Source: Chiloscyllium plagiosum
Lineage: Eukaryota
Direction of reading: 5' to 3'
Assembly (NCBI RefSeq): GCF_004010195.1
Contig: NW_025213640.1
Coordinates: forward strand, 1 to 34,845
Length of the DNA stretch: 34,845 nucleotides
Under the pieces are notes generated by a model, which ran no database searches, was not told the DNA's origin, and worked only from the letters and a program-made list of their open reading frames with translations. This document shows, one piece after another, positions 1 to 32,194 of the stretch. Each line of letters begins with the position of its first letter. Within the stretch, counting starts at the first letter, position 1. A program made the translations under genes and the position numbers.

Positions 1-153
1 GGGATGTGCAGGTTAGGGAGGGTTGGCCGTGGGAAATGCAGTGTTACAGGGACGGGCTGTGGTTGTTCCGGGTTGGATGAAGACTGAACGGCCTGTGTGC
101 ACATTTTCGGGGGGGGGCAAGGCCGGGGGTTTTGCTCGTGTTTTGGTACTCAC

Positions 154-931
154 TGCGCCCTTTCTGTTTGATCTCTTGAATCAGAAAGTTGTAGTCGATG
201 GCTGTGCTCTCTTTGAAGGGGATGTCGAACACGGTGAGGTTCCTGAACTTGGGCACCTCCTGGTACAGCCCCTCGACGGCAAAGTAGCACGGCCGGTCAT
301 CTGTCTTCTCATCGTTGTAGATGAACAGCGCTCGCTTTGTCCAGTTGAAGAGCTGGTGGATGGAGGTCACGTACTCACCCAGTTTCCTGTGGGACGGCCC
401 AGTCCTGGTCAGCAGGGGGTAGCTGGCTGACCTGAGGGAGAAACCGTAGGCTGGTGCGCCAGCCGTCAGCATCGGCACTTTCCAGTGCCCGGTGAAACGG
501 GCCACAGGTGCCGCTGTGTACACACAGCCGGGTCCCACAAAGACGTTCGGGTTATTGGTGAACTTGAGGTCTACGGCCACCAAGGGGGCAATGGACTCAG
601 AGCAGGTACCCAGTTCATCCTCACAGTTACCAAAGACGTAGGTCAGGTGGTGCCCAGACAACAGCCAGGGCTCATTGTTAATGGTATCCTGTGCCAGACG
701 GACAGCTGGGCCCACTCTCTGCCAAACCCATGGGTACGAGGTGTTATTCTGAGGCAACACCACAGCGATGGTCAGCAGCTCTGGCTCAGACGTTCCCCCG
801 AGCTGCAGGTGGGCACACAGGGCCCAGAGTAGCCAACGCAGCCAGGCAGTGCCACTCCAACCCTCCAGCAACCTCCCAGAGTCACTCCGAGGCACACTGC
901 CACTGGCCACTGGTGAGGTAGTCAGCACCAT
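154..931 (-). CDS. NPR1: Natriuretic peptide receptor A (guanylyl cyclase-A), coding exon 1: signal peptide and N-terminal part of the extracellular ligand-binding domain; gene continues left of the window
   Basis: ATG at 931 in strong context (aagATGG). Translation MVLTT...LTIAVVLPQNNTSYPWVWQRVGPAV...CSESIAPLVAVDLK...FVGPGCVYTAAPVARFTGHW...TDDRPCYFAVEGLY...QKGR ends at a phase-1 GTGAGT donor (153-148), the junction I recall for mammalian NPR1 exon 1 (RKGR|V). The YPW, APVxRFT and KGR motifs and adjacency to ILF2 favour NPR1 over NPR2. Confidence 0.9.
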
Positions 932-1049: not shown

Positions 1050-1853
1050 NNNNNNNNNNNNNNNNNNNNNNNNNNNNNNNNNNNNNNNNNNNNNNNNNNN
1101 NNNNNNNNNNNNNNNNNNNNNNNNNNNNNNNNNNNNNNNNNNNNNNNNNNNNNNNNNNNNNNNNNNNNNNNNNNNNNNNNNNNNNNNNNNNNNNNNNNNN
1201 NNNNNNNNNNNNNNNNNNNNNNNNNNNNNNNNNNNNNNNNNNNNNNNNNNNNNNNNNNNNNNNNNNNNNNNNNNNNNNNNNNNNNNNNNNNNNNNNNNNN
1301 NNNNNNNNNNNNNNNNNNNNNNNNNNNNNNNNNNNNNNNNNNNNNNNNNNNNNNNNNNNNNNNNNNNNNNNNNNNNNNNNNNNNNNNNNNNNNNNNNNNN
1401 NNNNNNNNNNNNNNNNNNNNNNNNNNNNNNNNNNNNNNNNNNNNNNNNNNNNNNNNNNNNNNNNNNNNNNNNNNNNNNNNNNNNNNNNNNNNNNNNNNNN
1501 NNNNNNNNNNNNNNNNNNNNNNNNNNNNNNNNNNNNNNNNNNNNNNNNNNNNNNNNNNNNNNNNNNNNNNNNNNNNNNNNNNNNNNNNNNNNNNNNNNNN
1601 NNNNNNNNNNNNNNNNNNNNNNNNNNNNNNNNNNNNNNNNNNNNNNNNNNNNNNNNNNNNNNNNNNNNNNNNNNNNNNNNNNNNNNNNNNNNNNNNNNNN
1701 NNNNNNNNNNNNNNNNNNNNNNNNNNNNNNNNNNNNNNNNNNNNNNNNNNNNNNNNNNNNNNNNNNNNNNNNNNNNNNNNNNNNNNNNNNNNNNNNNNNN
1801 NNNNNNNNNNNNNNNNNNNNNNNNNNNNNNNNNNNNNNNNNNNNNNNNNNNNN
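1050..1853. other. Assembly gap (N run) in the NPR1 5'/promoter region
   Basis: Run of n. Confidence 1.
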
Positions 1854-7279: not shown

Positions 7280-8430
7280 TGATTTATTTAATGTCACGTG
7301 CACCAAAGTACAGTGCAAAGCTTTGTTGACGAGCAGTGCAGGCAGATTGTAGTCAGCAAGGAGGGACAGATCAGAGAGACTTAGACAGAGGCAGATAGGT
7401 TACATTGCACAGGGGCGTACAAGAGATCAGCGTTACCAAGGTTGGGATTATTTCAGACCAGAACAGCTGGGAAGAAGCTGTTCCTGGACCTGCTGGTGTG
7501 TGTGAGTGTGTGTTCAAGCTTCTGTATCTGCCTGATGGAAGAGGTTGTAGGAGATCATTACCGGGATGAGATGGGTCCTTGGTAAGGTCTGAGGGAGTGT
7601 TGCTGAACAAAGAGACCTTGGAGTGCAGGTTCATAGCTCCTTGGAAGTGGAGTCGCAGGTAGATAGGATAGTGAAGGCAGCGTTTGGTATGCTTTCCTTT
7701 ATTGGTCAGAGTATTGGGTACAGGAGTTGGGAGGTCATGTTGCGGCTGTACAGGACATTGGTTAGGCCACTGTTGGAATATTGCGTGCAATTCTGGTCTC
7801 CTTCCTATCAGAAAGATGTTGTGAAACTTGAAAGGGTTCAGAAAAGATTTACAAGGATGTTGCCAGGGTTGGAGGATTTGAGCTATAGAGAGAGGCTGAN
7901 NNNNNNNNNNNNNNNNNNNNNNNNNNNNNNNNNNNNNNNNNNNNNNNNNNNNNNNNNNNNNNNNNNNNNNNNNNNNNNNNNNNNNNNACGTGTATGGAAT
8001 GAGCTGCCAGAGGATGTGGTGGAGGCTGGTACAATTGCAACATTTAAGAGGCATTTGGATGGGTATATGAATAGGAAGGGTTTGGAGGGATATGGGCCGG
8101 GTGCTGGCAGGTGGGACTAGATTGGGTTGGGATATCTGGGTCAGCATGGACGGGTTGGACCGAAGGGTCTGTTTCCGTGCTGTACATCTCTATGACTCTA
8201 CGTTGGCAGCCTTTCTGCTGCAGCGTGCTGTGTGGATGGAGTCCGTGGATGGGAGGTTGGCATCGGTGATGGTCTGGGCTGTGCACACCACCCTCTGTAG
8301 TTTCTTACGATCCTGGGCAGAGCAGTTACCGTAACAGGCCGTCATGCACCCGGACAGTGGGCTTTCAATGGTGCATCTGGTGAAGTTGGTGAGGGTCTCT
8401 GTGGAGATGCTGAATTTTCTGAGCTGCCTG
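7280..8430 (-). mobile_element. Rex1/Babar-like LINE 3' fragment split by a CR1 insertion
   Basis: Minus-strand KDPSHPGNDLLQPLPSGRYRSLNT is characteristic of the Rex1 RT C-terminus. The element resumes after 8200 (gcagcctttctgctgcagcg...ggccgtcatgcacccggacag). Confidence 0.6.
7583..8200 (+). mobile_element. CR1/HER1 LINE 3' end (ORF2 C-terminus and 3' tail); contains the 7900-7987 gap
   Basis: ORF 7623-8120 LYRTLVRPLLEYCVQFWSP...LERVQKRFTRMLPGL...VWNELP; tail ggaccgaagggtctgtttccgtgctgtacatctctatgactcta. Confidence 0.95.
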
Positions 8431-9680: not shown

Positions 9681-10346
9681 AGGTCTGTGGGAAGAAAGGA
9701 GAGTTAATGTTTCAATTCCAGTGACTATTTGTCAGGGGTAGGTCAGGCCTGACCTTATTAAATGAGACAGTGTTTACCAGAGGCCACATGGATTACAAAC
9801 AATCACGTTTCTTCATGTTTTTGTAGAATGCAAAGGTCTCAGGACTTCCCCCTCCCAAAAAAGCCTCAGCAACTCAGTCCAGCACGGAGTCCTGAGCCGG
9901 GGGGACACGAGGTTGCGAGGTGAAGGGAACTGAGATGAGATGAGCACGTTTTCACCTGCCCTCCACTCCCCTACCCCTGAGTGAAGACAGCTGTTGATAC
10001 AGATGGATCATTTCAATGACCCACTAGCGAGACATTTACAGAGAAGCTGCTTTCACAAATAATCCCAGAGCTGAGCAAATGTAGTCTTTTGCTGGTTTTC
10101 AGCTCTATCCATCCATCCAACCACTACTTCCTCAGTAAAACTGGGAACCAGACGCACAAACCTGCATAAAAACATATTCCAGGCCTCAACAAATTTCACA
10201 TTTCTTGCATGATATCCTGTTAACCCCTCAGTTAGACTCCAGCCCACAACTCAGTCCCCATATCTTTATTCTTTTTGATTTATTTAGGGCATCACTGATG
10301 AGACCAGCAGTCATTGGCCACCCCTAATTGCCCCTTGAGGTAGTGA

Positions 10347-12283: not shown

Positions 12284-12712
12284 TAAGATTCCAGTCTGTA
12301 ACCCCCTCCCGGGGTATCTGTTATTCTGTATATAACCCACCCCGAACCCCTCGATTAGATTCCAGTCTGTAACTCCCTCCCGGGGTATCTGTTATTCTGT
12401 ATATAAACCACCCCGAACCCCACGATTAGATTCCAGTCTGTAACTCCCAACCGGGGTATCTGTTATTCTGTATATAAACCACCCCGAACCCCTCGAATAG
12501 ATTCCAGTCTGTAACTCCCTCCCGGGGTATCTGTTATTCTGTATATAAACCCACCCCGAACCCCTCGATTAGATCCCAGCCTGTAACTCCCTCCCGGGGT
12601 ATCTGTTATTCTGTATATAAACCCACCCCGAACCCCTCGATTAGATCCCAGCCTGTAACTCCCTCCCGGGGTATCTGTTATTCAGTATATAAACCACCCC
12701 GAACCCCTCGAT
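12284..12712. repeat. Minisatellite, ~71-72-bp unit, ~6 copies
   Basis: Unit ttagattccagtctgtaactccctcccggggtatctgttattctgtatataaaccaccccgaacccctcga. Confidence 0.95.
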
Positions 12713-12714
12713 TT

Positions 12715-12950
12715 CTGACAGTGCCCACTCCCTCAGCACTGACCCTCTGACAGTGCCCACTCCCTCAGCACTGACCCTCTGACAGTGCCCACTCCCTCAG
12801 CGCTGACCCTCCGACAGTGCCCACTCCCTCAGCACTGACCCTCCGACAGTGCCCGCTCCCTCAGCACTGACTCTCCGACAGTGCCCGCTCCGTCAGCACT
12901 GACTCTCCGACAGTGCCCACTCCCTCAGCACTGACCCTCCGACAGTGCCC
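12715..12950. repeat. Minisatellite, 32-bp unit, ~7 copies (probably derived from a Deu-domain SINE)
   Basis: Unit c(t/c)gacagtgcccactccctcagcactgaccct. Confidence 0.95.
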
Positions 12951-12992: not shown

Positions 12993-13018
12993 CAGTACAC
13001 CTTCTCATCGTGGATCAC
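12993..13018 (-). CDS. SLC24 (NCKX3/4/5-like Na+/K+/Ca2+ exchanger) internal 26-nt exon, VIHDEKVY(W); last recognisable exon
   Basis: tttgtttgcag|GTGATCCACGATGAGAAGGTGTACTG|gtgagt; homologous to FIYDEKVSW of NCKX3. Confidence 0.85.
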
Positions 13019-13070
13019 CTGCAAACAAAGCAGAGATCTCTTCAGGCAAAATACAAGTGAGTCCATTAGG

Positions 13071-13340
13071 GGCGGCACGGTGGCTCAGTGGTTAGCACTG
13101 CTGCCTCACAGCGCCAGGGAGCCGGGTTCAATTCCAGCTTCGGGTGACTGTCTGTGTGGAGTTTGCACATTCTCCCCGTGTCTGCGTGGGTTTCCTCCGG
13201 GTGCTCCGGTTTCCTCCCACAGTCCAAAGACGTGCGGGTCAGGGTGGATTGGCCGTGGGAACTGCAGGGATAGGGTAGGGAGTCATTGCAGACTTGAGGG
13301 CCCGAATGGCCTCTTTTCACACTCCAGGGATTGTATGAAT
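13071..13340 (+). mobile_element. HE1-like V-SINE
   Basis: ggcggcacggtggctcagtggttagcactgctgcctcacagcgccagggagccgggttcaattcc followed by the V-domain. Confidence 0.9.
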
Positions 13341-13423
13341 CTGCATCACCACTCACCCTAACAGGAACATATCAATTACAATTGGCCAGAACTGAGCCCC
13401 AGGTCCCCAGGAGATGAACTCAC

Positions 13424-13498
13424 CAGAATGAGAGCAAGTACTGAGATGATGTAGGAGACAGAATCTCGGAACAGAGACCACCAAGTCAGGGCCACGTC
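13424..13498 (-). CDS. SLC24 exchanger 75-nt exon, DVALTWWSLFRDSVSYIISVLALIL
   Basis: ttccag|GAC...CTG|gtgagt; conserved RDS motif. Confidence 0.9.
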
Positions 13499-13554
13499 CT
13501 GGAACGCAACAGAAAGTACAGAGACTCAGTAATTCGTACCAGGTCCCAGTCCCC

Positions 13555-13556
<2 letters not shown>

Positions 13557-13591
<35 letters not shown>

Positions 13592-13725
13592 CAGAGAGAC
13601 CGAGCCTGTACCCCAGTGAGAGTCTGTGTGTGTGTGTGTCCGTACCCCAGTGAGAGTCAGTGTGTGTGTGTGTGTGTGAGAGCCCGTACCCCAGTGACAG
13701 TCAGTGTGTGTGTGTGTGTGTGAGC
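13557..13725. repeat. (TG)n microsatellite and gtaccccagtgagagtc-(tg)n compound repeat
   Basis: Directly visible. Confidence 0.9.
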
Positions 13726-13807
13726 CATACCCCGGTGGGGTGATGGGGGATGTGTGATGTCGGGGGGTTGATGGGACTGGGTAACACTAACTGAAGAGCT
13801 CACGTAC

Positions 13808-13911
13808 GTGTGCTGCAAAGAGTCCACAGAGGCCGATGATGCAGAGAATGTTGAAGACAGCTGAGCCCACGATGGTTCCCACTCCCACATCACTCTTTGC
13901 GATGAACACCC
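13808..13911 (-). CDS. SLC24 exchanger 104-nt exon, (G)VFIAKSDVGVGTIVGSAVFNILCIIGLCGLFAAH (alpha-1 repeat)
   Basis: ctgcag|GG GTG TTC...CAC|gtacgt; hallmark GTIVGSAVFNIL. Confidence 0.95.
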
Positions 13912-14079
13912 CTGCAGTGTGGAGAGAAAGCATGAAAAGGGAAACTGGGGGCAGGCTCCCCTTGCTGCATCCCCTCCCTGACTCAACAGCCTCGCACACA
14001 GCAGGAAAGTCCCAGGCTGTGTTTGTGGCCTACTGCTCACTTTATTTAACCCCTTCACAGGAATGCGGACGTTGCTGGT

Positions 14080-14350
14080 AAGAGGGGCATTTATTACCCA
14101 TCCTGGAACGTCCCTTGGGCTGATTGGCTTACACAGTGCTTTTCAGAGTCAGACGCGTCGCTGAGGGTCAGGAGTCACATGTAGGCCAGACAGGTAAGGA
14201 CGGCAGATTTCCTTCCCTCAAGGATCCAGATTGTTTTTTTTAACAACAATGGATGATATTTGCCGGGATCACCACACCCCTACCACCCTCACCGAGACTG
14301 GTTTCTAACTCCAAATACTTTGTTTGGGATGACCCACCAGTTGCCATGAC
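14080..14350 (-). mobile_element. Degenerate DeuSINE/SacSINE-like element
   Basis: gcatttattacccatcc...ggagtcacatgtaggccagacaggtaaggacggcagatttccttccct. Confidence 0.55.
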
Positions 14351-14611
14351 GATTGGCTGTGTGTACCCAGGACTCCTGCTCCTGGCCTCTGCTTTACAAT
14401 AGTCACTAGTTAGCCTCATGGAGCTGGATCCCAAACGCGCCCTCAGTCGGCAAGTTCGGCTCCATTCATGACCTAGTGTAGCCAAGCTACCTCACTGAAA
14501 CTGTGAGCAGGAAAATCCCAGGCTCCATTCACGGCCAGACAAAGCCAAATCACACAGAGACAGGCTCTGAATTGGGCTAGGCCCCAACCTCCTGACCTCA
14601 AGTACTGTACT

Positions 14612-14950
14612 TTTTATTTATTCATTCACAGGATAAGGGCATCGCTGGCCGGGCCAGCATTTATTGCCCACCCCTAATTGCCCAGAGGGCAGTTAAGAGC
14701 CAACCACATTGCTGTGGGTCTGGTGTTACGTGGAGAACAGACTGGATAAAGATGGCAGTTTCCTTCCTTAAAGGACATTAGTGAAGCAGATGGCTTTTTT
14801 CCGACAATTGGCAATGTTGGAATCATTAGACTCTTAATTCCAGATTTTTATTGAATTTAAATTCCACCATCTACGGTGGCAGGATTCGAACCCGGCTCCC
14901 CAGAACATGACCTGGGTCTCTGGGTTAATAGTCCAATGATAATATAACCA
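14612..14950 (-). mobile_element. DeuSINE/SacSINE-like element
   Basis: Tail tttattcattcac; body gccagcatttattgcccacccctaattgccc...gatggcagtttccttcc; reversed tRNA B box ggattcgaacccgg. Confidence 0.65.
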
Positions 14951-15065
14951 GGCCTTCGCCTGCCCGATCCACATTCCAGCCCTAGACCAGAGAGTAGGCC
15001 CAGGCTGGATTCTCGGCCTACTTCAGGCCTCGCTGTGCTGCCTGGCCAAGGTAAAGAGGACGTAC

Positions 15066-15150
15066 CAATCAGAGAGGTGAAAAGCTCAGGGGCCGAACTC
15101 CCAGCCGCCATGAAGGTAGCGCCGGCCACGTCTTCACTCAGGTGCAGGTG
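15066..15150 (-). CDS. SLC24 exchanger 85-nt exon, [28 protein letters not shown](G) (alpha-1 repeat)
   Basis: ttcacag|CAC...ATTG|gtacgt; hallmark [18 protein letters not shown]. Confidence 0.95.
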
Positions 15151-15329
15151 CTGTGAAATAAACAGCTCAAACAGTCAGAACGGTCACAGAGTGCGGGCAG
15201 GCCACACTGACCTCACCCTGCGGCTTTCTGGGACTCTTTCCCTGTATCTCCATTCCGAGGCTTAAATACAGAGAAAGTCCAACCCCGGTCCTCACTCACT
15301 ATTCCCAAACTGTCAGCCTCATCTGGTCA

Positions 15330-15733
15330 GGGACAGGGACAGCACGGGCTTAAATACAGAGTAAAGCTCCCTCTACACTGTCCCCCCATCAAACACTCCC
15401 AGGACAGGGACAGCACGGGGTTAGATACAGAGTAAAGCTCTCTCTACACTCTCCCCCCATCAAACACTCCCAGGACAGGGACAGCACGGAGTTAGATACA
15501 GAGTAAAGCTCCCTCTACACTGTCCCCCCATCAAACACTCCCAGGACAGGGACAGCACGGGGTTAGATACAGAGTAAAGCTCTCTCTACACTGTCACCCC
15601 ATCAAACACTCCCAGGACAGGGACAGCATTGGGTTAGATACAGAGTAATGCTCCCTCTACACTGTCCCCCCCATCAAACACTCCCAGGACAGGGACAGCA
15701 CGGGGTTAGATACAGAGTAAAGCTCCCTCTACA
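15330..15733. repeat. Minisatellite, ~70-71-bp unit, ~6 copies (probably derived from a SINE tail)
   Basis: Unit ttagatacagagtaaagctccctctacactgtccccccatcaaacactcccaggacagggacagcacgggg. Confidence 0.95.
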
Positions 15734-15862
15734 CCGTGCTGGTACAGGTATTGTGGGTAAATTGTTGGTTTTGGAAGTGGCTGTTGATCACTCCAGCTGA
15801 CACTCTAGTTTGCATCACATGACCATTCCGGATTATCCGGATCCTGGGAACGTCACACTCAC

Positions 15863-15937
15863 CTTGCAAATCTTTTCCAGAGATGGAACAAAGCAGCTGT
15901 CACACACAATTGCCAGGGCGTAGAACATGTACATTGC
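15863..15937 (-). CDS. SLC24 exchanger 75-nt exon, AMYMFYALAIVCDSCFVPSLEKICK
   Basis: ttcccaag|GCA...AAG|gtgagt; homologous to AIYMFYALAIVCDDFFVPSLEKICE of NCKX3/4. Confidence 0.92.
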
Positions 15938-16149
15938 CTTGGGAAGGAAGCAAGGGAAAGCTGCTTCAGCCTCCATACTTTCCAACAAATCATTCCACAA
16001 TCTCTGAAACACTTAACCGCCCCCCCACCCATCCACGGGGACCATTCGCCCATCCGTGCCTGTACTGTCCCTCCTGCCTCTGGGAGCAGCCTCTCCCTCA
16101 CTGACCCCTTCCCGATTCCGAACGCCTCGATTTGAGTCCCCTCACTCAC

Positions 16150-16230
16150 CACCCCCCAAACCTTCCCTGCTCCATAGAAATGATCCCACAGCATCTCCAG
16201 TCTCTCTCCACATCTCCTGAAGACTTCCAT
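16150..16230 (-). CDS. Candidate non-homologous start exon for the SLC24 cassette, MEVFRRCGERLEMLWDHFYGAGKVWGV
   Basis: gggaaATGG context; 27 codons; phase-0 GTG|gtgagt donor compatible with the phase-0 acceptor at 15937; no homology support. Confidence 0.25.
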
Positions 16231-16249
16231 TTCCCGCCCAGCAGCGTAA

Positions 16250-16730
16250 AAGTCAATTTACAAGGATGGTGCCTGGCCTCCAGGGTCTGAGTTACAGGGA
16301 GAGGTTGGACGGGCGAGGACCTTTCTCTTCAGAGTGTAGGAGGCTGATGGGGGACCTTATCGAGGTGTGTAAGACCATGAGAGGCAGGGATAGGGTGAAT
16401 GCACTCAGTGTTTGTCCCAGGGTTGGGGAGTCGAGGACTAGAGGGCATCAGTTTAAGGTTAGAGGGGAAAGAATAAAAGGGAACCTGAGGGGAAACCTTT
16501 TTACCCAGAGGGTGGTCCGCAGATGGAATGAGCTGCCAGTGGAAGGGGTTGGGGCGGGTACATTAACAACATTTAAAAGGCATTTGGACACACACATGGA
16601 CAGGAGAGGGATAGAAGGATATGGGCCAGGTGTAGGGAAATGGGGGTTAATGTGGATGGATGTTGGGGTTGGCAGGGACCAGTGTGGGCCGAAGGGTCTG
16701 TCTGCATGCTGTCGGACTTTAAGACTCTAA
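16250..16730 (+). mobile_element. CR1/HER1 LINE 3' fragment
   Basis: ORF MVPGLQGLSYRERLD...FTQRVVRRWNELP. Confidence 0.9.
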
Positions 16731-18400: not shown

Positions 18401-20100
18401 ATTTTGGTTTCATTTATTAAACTGACGGGCAATTAATTGACCCATATTGGGTGATCCCATCAGACTGGGTCAATCCAGGGATGTGTAGGTCATGGTAATG
18501 ACCACAAACGGTTTTTAATCAACTTTAACATGGGCTGCCTCCTGGGTGGCACCTTGTCAAAATATTTTGGTTTCAGTTATTAAACTGACCCACATTGGGT
18601 GATCCCATCAGACTGGGTCAATCCAGAGACAGGTTGTTCGTGGTAATGACCACAAACGGTTTTTAATCAACTTTAATCTGGACATGGGGTTTTAGGAGTA
18701 AGTTGAGGTAGAGTAACTGACAGTTCACTCATCCTGAATTATCTTCAAGGCACCAATCAGTTCCATTAGTATCCAACATCAGCTTCCTTCCAATTCAATC
18801 CATCTACTGCCTCCACAAAAGAACCGAAACCCCCAGTGGATCTGTTAGCAATTATCGAATTTTTACAACCTTTATCATAGAATCCCGAGAGTGTGGACTC
18901 TGGCCATTTGGCCCATCGAGTCCACATCAACCCTCTGAAGAGCAGCCCACTCAGACCCACTCCATACCCATAACCCTGCATTTCCACATGGCCAATCCAC
19001 CCTAACCTGCACATCCCTGGGCACTATGGGACAATTCCCCATGGCCAATCCACCCTAACCTGCACATCCCTGGACACTATGGGACAATTTCCCATGGCCA
19101 ATCCACCCAAACCTGCACATCCCTGGGCACTATGGGACAATTTCCCACGGCCAATCCACCCTAACCTGTACATCCCTGGGCACTATGGGACAATATCCCA
19201 CGGCCAATCCACCCTAACCTGTACATCCCTGGGCACTATGGGACACAGCCAGGGTCCCAACACCGACCCCCTTGTGGAACCCCACTAGTCACCGGCTGCC
19301 ATCCTGACTAACACCCTTTCATCCCCACTCTCTGCTTTCTGCCATCCAGCCAATCCTCTCTCCATGCTGGCACCTTGTCCCGAACACCATGGGCTGCCTC
19401 CTGGGTGGCACCTTGTCAAAATATTTTGGTTTCAGTTATTAAACTGACCCACATTGGGTGATCCCATCAGACTGGGTCAATCCAGAGACAGGTTGTTCGT
19501 GGTAATGACCACAAACGGTTTTTAATCAACTTTAATCTGGACATGGGGTTTTAGGAGTAAGTTGAGGTAGAGTAACTGACAGTTCACTCATCCTGAATTA
19601 TCTTCAAGGCACCAATCAGTTCCATTAGTATCCAACATCAGCTTCCTTCCAATTCAATCCATCTACTGCCTCCACAAAAGAACCGAAACCCCCAGTGGAT
19701 CTGTTAGCAATTATCGAATTTTTACAACCTTTATCATAGAATCCCGAGAGTGTGGACTCTGGCCATTTGGCACATCGAGTCCACATCAACCCTCTGAAGA
19801 GCAGCCCACTCAGACCCACCCCATACCCATAACCCTGCATTTCCACATGGCCAATCCACCCTAACCTGCACATCCCTGGGCACTATGGGACAATTTCCCA
19901 CGGCCAATCCACCCTAACCTGCACATCCCTGGGCACTATGGGACAATTTCCCATGGCCAATCCACCCTAACCTGCACATCCCTGGACACTATGGGACAAT
20001 TTCCCACGGCCAATCCACCCTAACCTGCACATCCCTGGGCACTATGGGACAATTTCCCATGGCCAATCCACCCTAACCTGGACATCCCTGGACACTATGG
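18223..20100. repeat. ~1-kb direct tandem duplication (copies start at 18223 and 19245); copy 1 has an extra 163-bp internal duplication
   Basis: Near-identical text acagccagggtcccaacaccgacc...; the ORFs at 18766-19014 and 19625-19873 differ by one residue. Confidence 0.95.
18990..19243 (-). repeat. 53-bp SINE-internal minisatellite, ~5 copies
   Basis: Unit ggccaatccaccctaacctgcacatccctgggcactatgggacaatttcccat. Confidence 0.95.
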
Positions 20101-22101: not shown

Positions 22102-22581
22102 NNNNNNNNNNNNNNNNNNNNNNNNNNNNNNNNNNNNNNNNNNNNNNNNNNNNNNNNNNNNNNNNNNNNNNNNNNNNNNNNNNNNNNNNNNNNNNNNNNN
22201 NNNNNNNNNNNNNNNNNNNNNNNNNNNNNNNNNNNNNNNNNNNNNNNNNNNNNNNNNNNNNNNNNNNNNNNNNNNNNNNNNNNNNNNNNNNNNNNNNNNN
22301 NNNNNNNNNNNNNNNNNNNNNNNNNNNNNNNNNNNNNNNNNNNNNNNNNNNNNNNNNNNNNNNNNNNNNNNNNNNNNNNNNNNNNNNNNNNNNNNNNNNN
22401 NNNNNNNNNNNNNNNNNNNNNNNNNNNNNNNNNNNNNNNNNNNNNNNNNNNNNNNNNNNNNNNNNNNNNNNNNNNNNNNNNNNNNNNNNNNNNNNNNNNN
22501 NNNNNNNNNNNNNNNNNNNNNNNNNNNNNNNNNNNNNNNNNNNNNNNNNNNNNNNNNNNNNNNNNNNNNNNNNNNNNNNNN
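22102..22581. other. Assembly gap
   Basis: Run of n. Confidence 1.
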
Positions 22582-24875: not shown

Positions 24876-25142
24876 CGGGCCGGTTAACTATGGAACAGAG
24901 AAACAGTACAGCTTTCATCCAGGGCTACAGCTGGAGGCAGCACATTGAGCTGGATAACATGGGAGTGATTTACTGGTAGGTACAGATCTATCACTTGTGG
25001 TAGGAACAGTGTGTGGATATAAATTGAAGACATTTTATAACAAAATGGTACCGATGGCACAGGTGAAATAACCTTGATGATAACACTAAAGGGTGAAAGT
25101 GACATTGCACGTACCACTCAGTAACATCACAGCAAGAGGCCC

Positions 25143-26699: not shown

Positions 26700-29600
26700 T
26701 GCATTCTGCTTACGTCTGTGATTACAGCGGCTGACGTTCAAGATGTTGGACCTGATTCAGAGGAAGTTGACCAGACTGATACCTGGAAGGAACAGGCTGT
26801 CTTACAGAGAAAGGTTGGACAGGCTGGGCTCGTTTCCCACTGCAGCTTAAACCAGTGAAGGGTGACATCAGGGAAATGCATAAGAACCTGAATGGTCCTG
26901 ACAAGGGGGACATGGAGAGGAGGTTTTCCTCAGTCTGGAACCTGAATGGCCCTGACAAGGGGGACATGGACAGGAGGTTTTCCTCAGTCTGGAACCTGAA
27001 TGGCCCTGACAAGGGGGACACATGGAGAGGAGGTTTTCCTCAGTCTGGAAACTGAATGGCCCTGACAAGGGGGACACATGGAGAGGAGGTTTTCCTCAGT
27101 CTGGAACCTGAATGGGCCTGACAAGGGGGACACATGGAGAGGAGGTTTTCCTCAGTCTGGAACCTGAATGGTCCTGACAAGGGACACATGGAGAGGAGGT
27201 TTTCCTCAGTCTGGAACCTGAATGGTCCTGACAAGGGGGACATGGAGAGGAGGTTTTCCTCAGCCTGGAACCTGATTGGTCCTGACAAGGGGGACACATG
27301 GAGAGGAGGTTTTCCTCAGCCTGGAACCTGAATGGCCCTGACAAGGGGGACACATGGAGAGGAGGTTTTCCTCAGTCTGGAACCTGAATGGCCCTGACAA
27401 GGGGCACACATGGAGAGGAGGTTTTCCTCAGCCTGGAACCTGAATGGCCCTGACAAGGGGCACACATGGAGAGGAGGTTTTCCTCAGCCTGGAACCTGAA
27501 TGGCCCTGACAAGGGGCACACATGGAGAGGAGGTTTTCCTCAGCCTGGAACCTGAATGGCCCTGACAAGGGGGACACATGGAGAGGAGGTTTTCCTCAGC
27601 CTGGAACCTGAATGGCCCTGACAAGGGGGACACATGGAGAGGAGGTTTTCCTCAGTCTGGAACCTGAATGGTCCTGACAAGGGGGACATGGAGAGGAGGT
27701 TTTCCTCAGTCTGGAACCTGAATGGCCCTGACAAGGGGCACACATGGAGAGGAGGTTTTCCTCAGCCTGGAACCTGAATGGCCCTGACAAGGGGCACACA
27801 TGGAGAGGAGGTTTTCCTCAGCCTGGAACCTGAATGGCCCTGACAAGGGGCACACATGGAGAGGAGGTTTTCCTCAGCCTGGAACCTGAATGGCCCTGAC
27901 AAGGGGCACACATGGAGAGGAGGTTTTCCTCAGCCTGGAACCTGAATGGCCCTGACAAGGGGCACACATGGAGAGGAGGTTTTCCTCAGCCTGGAACCTG
28001 AATGGCCCTGACAAGGGGGACACATGGAGAGGAGGTTTTCCTCAGCCTGGAACCTGAATGGCCCTGACAAGGGGGACACATGGAGAGGAGGTTTTCCTCA
28101 GCCTGGAACCTGAATGGCCCTGACAAGGGGGACACATGGAGAGGAGGTTTTCCTCAGCCTGGAACCTGAATGGCCCTGACAAGGGGGACACATGGAGAGG
28201 AGGTTTTCCTCAGCCTGGAACCTGAATGGCCCTGACAAGGGGGACACATGGAGAGGAGGTTTTCCTCAGCCTGGAACCTGAATGGCCCTGACAAGGGGGA
28301 CACATGGAGAGGAGGTTTTCCTCAGCCTGGAACCTGAATGGCCCTGACAAGGGGGACACATGGAGAGGAGGTTTTCCTCAGCCTGGAACCTGAATGGCCC
28401 TGACAAGGGGGACACATGGAGAGGAGGTTTTCCTCAGCCTGGAACCTGAATGGCCCTGACAAGGGGGACACATGGAGAGGAGGTTTTCCTCAGCCTGGAA
28501 CCTGAATGGCCCTGACAAGGGGGACACATGGAGAGGAGGTTTTCCTCAGCCTGGAACCTGAATGGCCCTGACAAGGGGGACACATGGAGAGGAGGTTTTC
28601 CTCAGCCTGGAACCTGAATGGCCCTGACAAGGGGGACACATGGAGAGGAGGTTTTCCTCAGCCTGGAACCTGAATGGCCCTGACAAGGGGGACACATGGA
28701 GAGGAGGTTTTCCTCAGCCTGGAACCTGAATGGCCCTGACAAGGGGGACACATGGAGAGGAGGTTTTCCTCAGCCTGGAACCTGAATGGCCCTGACAAGG
28801 GGGACACATGGAGAGGAGGTTTTCCTCAGCCTGGAACCTGAATGGCCCTGACAAGGGGGACACATGGAGAGGAGGTTTTCCTCAGCCTGGAACCTGAATG
28901 GCCCTGACAAGGGGGACACATGGAGAGGAGGTTTTCCTCAGCCTGGAACCTGAATGGCCCTGACAAGGGGGACACATGGAGAGGAGGTTTTCCTCAGCCT
29001 GGAACCTGAATGGCCCTGACAAGGGGGACACATGGAGAGGAGGTTTTCCTCAGCCTGGAACCTGAATGGCCCTGACAAGGGGGACACATGGAGAGGAGGT
29101 TTTCCTCAGCCTGGAACCTGAATGGCCCTGACAAGGGGGACACATGGAGAGGAGGTTTTCCTCAGCCTGGAACCTGAATGGCCCTGACAAGGGGGACACA
29201 TGGAGAGGAGGTTTTCCTCAGCCTGGAACCTGAATGGCCCTGACAAGGGGGACACATGGAGAGGAGGTTTTCCTCAGCCTGGAACCTGAATGGCCCTGAC
29301 AAGGGGGACACATGGAGAGGAGGTTTTCCTCAGCCTGGAACCTGAATGGCCCTGACAAGGGGGACACATGGAGAGGAGGTTTTCCTCAGCCTGGAACCTG
29401 AATGGCCCTGACAAGGGGGACACATGGAGAGGAGGTTTTCCTCAGCCTGGAACCTGAATGGCCCTGACAAGGGGGACACATGGAGAGGAGGTTTTCCTCA
29501 GCCTGGAACCTGAATGGCCCTGACAAGGGGGACACATGGAGAGGAGGTTTTCCTCAGCCTGGAACCTGAATGGCCCTGACAAGGGGGAGGAAGGAAACAT

Positions 29601-32047: not shown

Positions 32048-32194
<147 letters not shown>

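Follow-up and report, generated by a model that had tools for sequence, protein, structure and literature searches.

The window analysed here, 34,845 nucleotides of Chiloscyllium plagiosum DNA, is an entire unplaced scaffold (C100235) of a 3.56-Gb assembly in 101,977 contigs (G000). Along the minus strand it carries, in this order, the 3' part of a DZF-domain gene, exons of an NCKX (SLC24) gene and exon 1 of an NPR1-like gene, together with assembly gaps and tandem arrays, as follows (positions are those of the window).

32063..32176, minus strand: DZF_C exon of an ILF2-like gene, whose last exon ends near 25140
22102..22581: assembly gap of 480 N that separates the 3' end of ILF2 from the NCKX exons
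16150..16230, minus strand: ATG exon candidate, rejected as repeat-derived
15863..15937, minus strand: NCKX3-like coding exon 1, 75 nt (AMYMF...ICK), with CDSCF where CDD[FY]F is usual
15066..15150, minus strand: coding exon 2, 85 nt, first part of alpha-1 with SAPE (E188 equivalent)
13808..13911, minus strand: coding exon 3, 104 nt, present once in the assembly, with the second part of alpha-1 (GTIVGSAVFN)
13424..13498, minus strand: coding exon 4, 75 nt, carrying RDS
12993..13018, minus strand: coding exon 5, 26 nt, ending in phase 2 (TG), the Trp codon being completed by the first G of C70638:409-462
12717..12950: 32-bp tandem array right after exon 5, a candidate break point
12286..12713: 71-bp tandem array of unrelated sequence directly next to the 32-bp array, with a candidate misjoin near 12715
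10053..10160, minus strand: last exon of the 156-aa NCBI model P0001, 35 aa and TGA, similar to no fetched NCKX
7900..7987: assembly gap of 88 N that separates the NCKX exons from NPR1
1050..1853: assembly gap of 804 N immediately upstream of exon 1 of NPR1
143..931, minus strand: NPR1-like exon 1 (ANF_receptor), with three more exons on three other unplaced contigs

The DZF-domain neighbour we take to be ILF2 from features of its sequence; a search with DZF_N did not place the 5' part of this ILF2-like gene. DZF_N matches in adjoining frames with stops at G000:C21:49961914-49962487 have the look of a processed DZF-domain pseudogene. In the ILF2-like gene, 2.7 kb of the last intron (26884-29588) are taken up by a 56-bp satellite (48.5 copies, 98% matches). 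Between 18420 and 19900 a block of about 860 bp, with ORFs of identical length (18721-19005 and 19580-19864), is repeated almost exactly amid 53-bp arrays, which may be an assembly duplication.

The NCKX exons of the window

All five minus-strand exons described in the earlier note were found again. Each is bounded by AG and GT, the end phases are 0, 1, 0, 0 and 2, and their sum of 365 nt gives 121 codons with no stop, in which SAPEL and RDS are kept. As 114 of the 121 residues are identical to the NCKX3-like protein of Heterodontus, the match is, on its sequence, not one of chance. The alpha-1 repeat with its SAPE glutamate is present in exons 15150-15066 and 13911-13808; a model already annotated on the window by NCBI (P0001, 'NCKX3-like', Chiloscyllium plagiosum, XP_043542219.1, 156 aa), identical over exon 3, matches Na_Ca_ex at E=6e-26, and a PDB sequence search with exon 3 gave no match at E<=1. 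The exon pattern had been ascribed to the SLC24A3/4/5 subgroup, and the genes on C9, C10 and C36 of the same assembly, with an alpha-1 half likewise split into small exons, do match exon by exon, unlike SLC24A1 and SLC24A2 (C32 and C2) with their one large N-terminal coding exon.

In exon 15937-15863, CDSCF stands against DD[FY]F in 163 of the 165 motif-scored NCKX proteins (182 aligned), and the exon ends in K, not E. The same stretch is also altered in Stegostoma (CDHYF, ICK), hinting at a shift in this loop in carpet sharks.

Both proposed ends of the gene are doubtful. The in-frame ATG exon candidate at 16230-16150 turned out to be repeat-derived, with matches of 75-81% at four other genomic places, and it abuts a LINE-like ORF at 16221-16730, presumably of CR1; as a start exon it lacks a Pfam match, a BLASTP match to any fetched NCKX protein and a hydrophobic stretch (maximum hydropathy 0.23). 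At the other end, exon 10160-10053 of P0001 is likely a gene-predictor fill-in, and a stretch of 1.5 kb contains a single poly(A)-like hexamer, one ATTAAA. The 156-aa RefSeq model is best regarded as a fragment whose last exon is likely false.

Exons on four small contigs

The absence of a WE..MK exon, of the alpha-2 exons and of the upstream EFP exon, reported by eye in the earlier note, holds inside the window, where tblastn with six shark orthologues found no NCKX exon beyond the five, but for the WE..MK and alpha-2 exons it does not hold in the genome as a whole. Genome searches with PF01699 and with the Heterodontus orthologue recovered five further exons, among them both alpha-2 exons, so that the lack of an alpha-2 half is not confirmed. 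They lie on four orphan contigs of 1.4-3.0 kb each, 8,635 bp together, and all have AG/GT ends.

C70638:409-462: WEAL..MK exon
C70638:2534-2670: next loop exon
C38470:287-447: VDEL loop exon
C44662:83-197: alpha-2 exon with GTSVPD (D548 equivalent)
C74301:1267-1379: alpha-2 exon with GSNVFD (D575 equivalent)

The window exons and the first three orphan exons join to 717 nt or 239 codons and the two alpha-2 exons to 228 nt or 76 codons; over the 945 nt of all ten there is no stop, AG and GT flank every one of them, and they cover 315 of the 583 residues of the Heterodontus orthologue. All four testable junction phases match, which for random exons would happen once in 81; the same would be expected of any paralogue that shares the exon pattern, and the orthology of the orphan exons therefore rests on their sequence. 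In this respect the shark NCKX3-like group gives their best or joint best scores, the variable loop exon sharing 23 of 45 residues with Stegostoma (4-15 for other NCKX3-type proteins). GC3 is 0.64 in the window exons and in both orphan sets. Each of the genes on C9, C10 and C36 (SLC24A3-, A4- and A5-type) has alpha-2 exons of its own, so that the orphan alpha-2 exons are surplus to them. The window and the orphan pieces would, by these comparisons, belong to one locus.

For at least five exons of the gene (upstream EFP, a loop exon, ..WMV and the final two) no member of the NCKX3-like clade turned up in the assembly, two of these searches having used a stricter first look; presumably these remaining exons were left unassembled. 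Two further contigs were rejected as parts of the gene: C51835 carries an SLC8-type exon instead, and the match on C80838 is full of stops.

A recent truncated duplicate in the window, with the orphan exons coming from a second, complete copy elsewhere, would suit the odd place between ILF2 and NPR1 and the presence in this assembly of other duplicated SLC exons on unplaced contigs (C101961). Exon 3 with its flanks, however, has one near-identical match in the assembly, the next best reaching 79% and 77%, and no second set of alpha-1 exons of the NCKX3-like clade came up in the genome searches, which leaves such a duplicate barely credible. The idea of a recently truncated paralogue is accordingly given up, the exon 3 region being single-copy and the lineage old. 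On C101961 (L017) the SLC24A4-type alpha-2 exon of C10 is repeated with the same translation, and C100970 (L006) carries a further SLC8-type large exon; both are possibly redundant haplotype scaffolds.

Gaps, arrays and scaffold order

The window very probably holds the exons for the 5' transmembrane half of a single, ordinary NCKX3-like (SLC24) gene of full length, which the assembly has scattered over at least five pieces. Incomplete assembly, the last of three options offered in the earlier note, is supported by the five missing exons on other contigs, which chain in phase and frame, and one gene in pieces is the simplest account. The neighbouring NPR1 serves as a control, with matches of at least 80% on at least four different unplaced contigs. 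Of the eight ends of the orphan contigs, seven match satellites, simple repeats or other repeats that also occur in the window, and the GC content of these contigs is 0.51-0.57 versus 0.39-0.47 for five paralogue loci; repeat- and GC-rich regions are reported to cause assembly gaps (PMC7757076).

The two gaps downstream of the NCKX exons hold 892 N versus 8,635 bp of orphan contigs, which points to either undersized gaps or a misjoined scaffold, one or the other being probable. A misjoin of the scaffold is favoured on three grounds: the 32-bp and 71-bp arrays abut, which makes the vicinity of 12715 a candidate point; C70638 starts in a unit similar to the 32-bp array and in the same orientation (28 nt, 86%, E=0.007, a weak match); and the NCKX3-like orthologue and NPR1 lie apart in other species, on sequences of 27.5 Mb and 22.1 Mb in Heterodontus and of 24.6 Mb and 172 Mb in Latimeria. 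The 23-base junction near 12715 occurs once in the assembly, in the window itself, and is uninformative on whether the junction is real. The orthologue sits on scaffolds of unplaced size (98-664 kb) in four other shark assemblies. The placement of the NCKX-bearing middle contig (7988-22101) between ILF2 and NPR1 may be wrong, and synteny comparisons should leave aside the scaffold order ILF2, NCKX3-like, NPR1 until it has been checked.

The same layout could be taken at face value, as a true fission in bamboo sharks that left the alpha-1 half between ILF2 and NPR1 with a last exon of its own, encoding a membrane protein of about 150 residues that dimerises or pairs with a separate alpha-2 half. 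The assembled scaffold does have this layout, P0001 closes at 156 aa with exon 10160-10053, and a real move would also explain why the orthologue and NPR1 are on different chromosomes in Heterodontus and Latimeria. A credible start or leader exon is nevertheless absent, the closing exon has no homologue and only the one hexamer near it, the break falls inside an intron, C70638 takes up the phase of that intron exactly and itself starts in a similar repeat unit, and NPR1 is equally broken. We consider a fission very unlikely; if true, it would mean a vertebrate Ca2+ exchanger that is split in nature. The proposed role as half-transporter or regulatory subunit is likewise improbable given the intact alpha-2 half of the same clade in the genome. 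The literature search for functional truncated exchangers brought up only papers on circular SLC8A1 RNA.

The NCKX3-like lineage and the predicted exchanger

The orthologues of the window exons are shark RefSeq records named 'sodium/potassium/calcium exchanger 3-like' (XP_067877810.1 of Heterodontus, XP_072345437.1 of Scyliorhinus torazame, XP_059499912.1 of Stegostoma). In the NCKX3-like proteins of six shark species 109-114 of the 121 residues are identical to the window exons, with which they share a clade in all trees, and six of seven other shark orthologues have both alpha repeats. They are 493-738 aa long and differ in this from the 156-aa window model, which is short owing to a scaffold without the 3' exons, and also in having CDDYF for CDSCF. 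In separate trees of the window exons (UFBoot 74) and of the orphan exons (100), each set is sister to Stegostoma NCKX3-like; these trees used 24 of 27 comparison proteins, without P0123, P0021 and P0118, which were partial or redundant.

Canonical SLC24A3/NCKX3, which in C. plagiosum lies on C9, has the same exon pattern and motifs and, over 440 aligned residues, is about 66% identical to the Heterodontus orthologue, but it forms a clade of its own (UFBoot 96) apart from NCKX3-like, and the same shark species carry both genes. The window gene is therefore not SLC24A3 itself, as it falls outside the canonical clade while canonical NCKX3 is found elsewhere in the same species. The NCKX3-like clade unites sharks, coelacanth and ray-finned fishes (P0002-4, P0007, P0014, P0121, P0130, P0175, P0181, P0182, P0184 and P0188) with UFBoot 96 on 284 conserved columns, a tree that includes SLC24A4 and A5 pieces and drops eight rows of the 526-column set, and with 66 on 526 columns; the position of SLC24A4 has weak support (46-54). 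The NCKX3-like clade also takes in some teleost records that bear the name 'exchanger 3' (Anguilla, Brienomyrus), and no tetrapod member was found among the 35 and 29 sequences of the two trees. By its place in these trees NCKX3-like is an old sister lineage of SLC24A3, common to sharks, coelacanth and ray-finned fishes and already annotated by machine.

A full-length gene that is decaying in carpet sharks, by relaxed selection or as a young pseudogene, with some of the unfound exons truly deleted, is unlikely, if somewhat less so than a fission. What speaks for decay are conserved columns with changes private to C. plagiosum (D>S, E>K and L>I) along with one loop change, where each of six other shark orthologues has 0-2, and the Stegostoma model, which has 20 departures where 10-12 are usual and is without two alpha-1 exons. 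In the same direction, among the best 120 matches listed there was no NCKX3-like record of Chiloscyllium punctatum, Hemiscyllium or Rhincodon, three related carpet sharks, and exon 4 has no coverage in three contig sets guessed to be RNA, where in the window interval 13300-13545 only the repeat at 13300-13344 is covered; the tissues of these sets are unspecified, however, which weakens the point. A raw single-cell run gave 0 reads from about 2/100 of the run, a sample too small to be a test. Against decay, all ten found exons are open with intact splice sites, the equivalents of the three acidic residues E188, D548 and D575 are, by motif spacing, all kept across window and orphan exons, and the 12 departures at 204 conserved columns in C. 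plagiosum lie inside the range of 10-12 of the six other sharks. The Stegostoma gene moreover sits on a 147-kb scaffold, and its missing exons may also be a gap. Its model P0121 is without exactly the two alpha-1 exons, a mirror image of the defect of the window.

If the pieces are read as one intact gene, the full protein would be a normal K+-dependent Na+/Ca2+ exchanger. The stoichiometry of NCKX transport and its alternating-access mechanism belong to the general knowledge of the family. The predicted whole protein would work like NCKX2 and NCKX3 as a membrane exchanger that moves Ca2+ and K+ against Na+ by alternating access, its central cation sites being formed by alpha-1, with the SAPE glutamate of the window, and by alpha-2, with the TSVPD and SNVFD aspartates of C44662 and C74301. 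The spacing of these motifs suggests that the equivalents of E188, D548 and D575 of human NCKX2 are provided by SAPE (window), TSVPD (C44662) and SNVFD (C74301), respectively. For NCKX2, E188C and D548C are reported to show no transport, and D575 is listed among the site residues (PMC12150658). A lone alpha-1 half would be without two of the three acidic residues.

The half size is very probably an effect of the assembly and has no significance as a half-transporter. A literature search, with most subscription journals outside its scope, found no paper that names the NCKX3-like paralogue, and in the accessible part of PMC6170504 NCKX3-5 serve only as an outgroup. For the SLC24 family, this little described NCKX3-like lineage poses a modest gene-family question.
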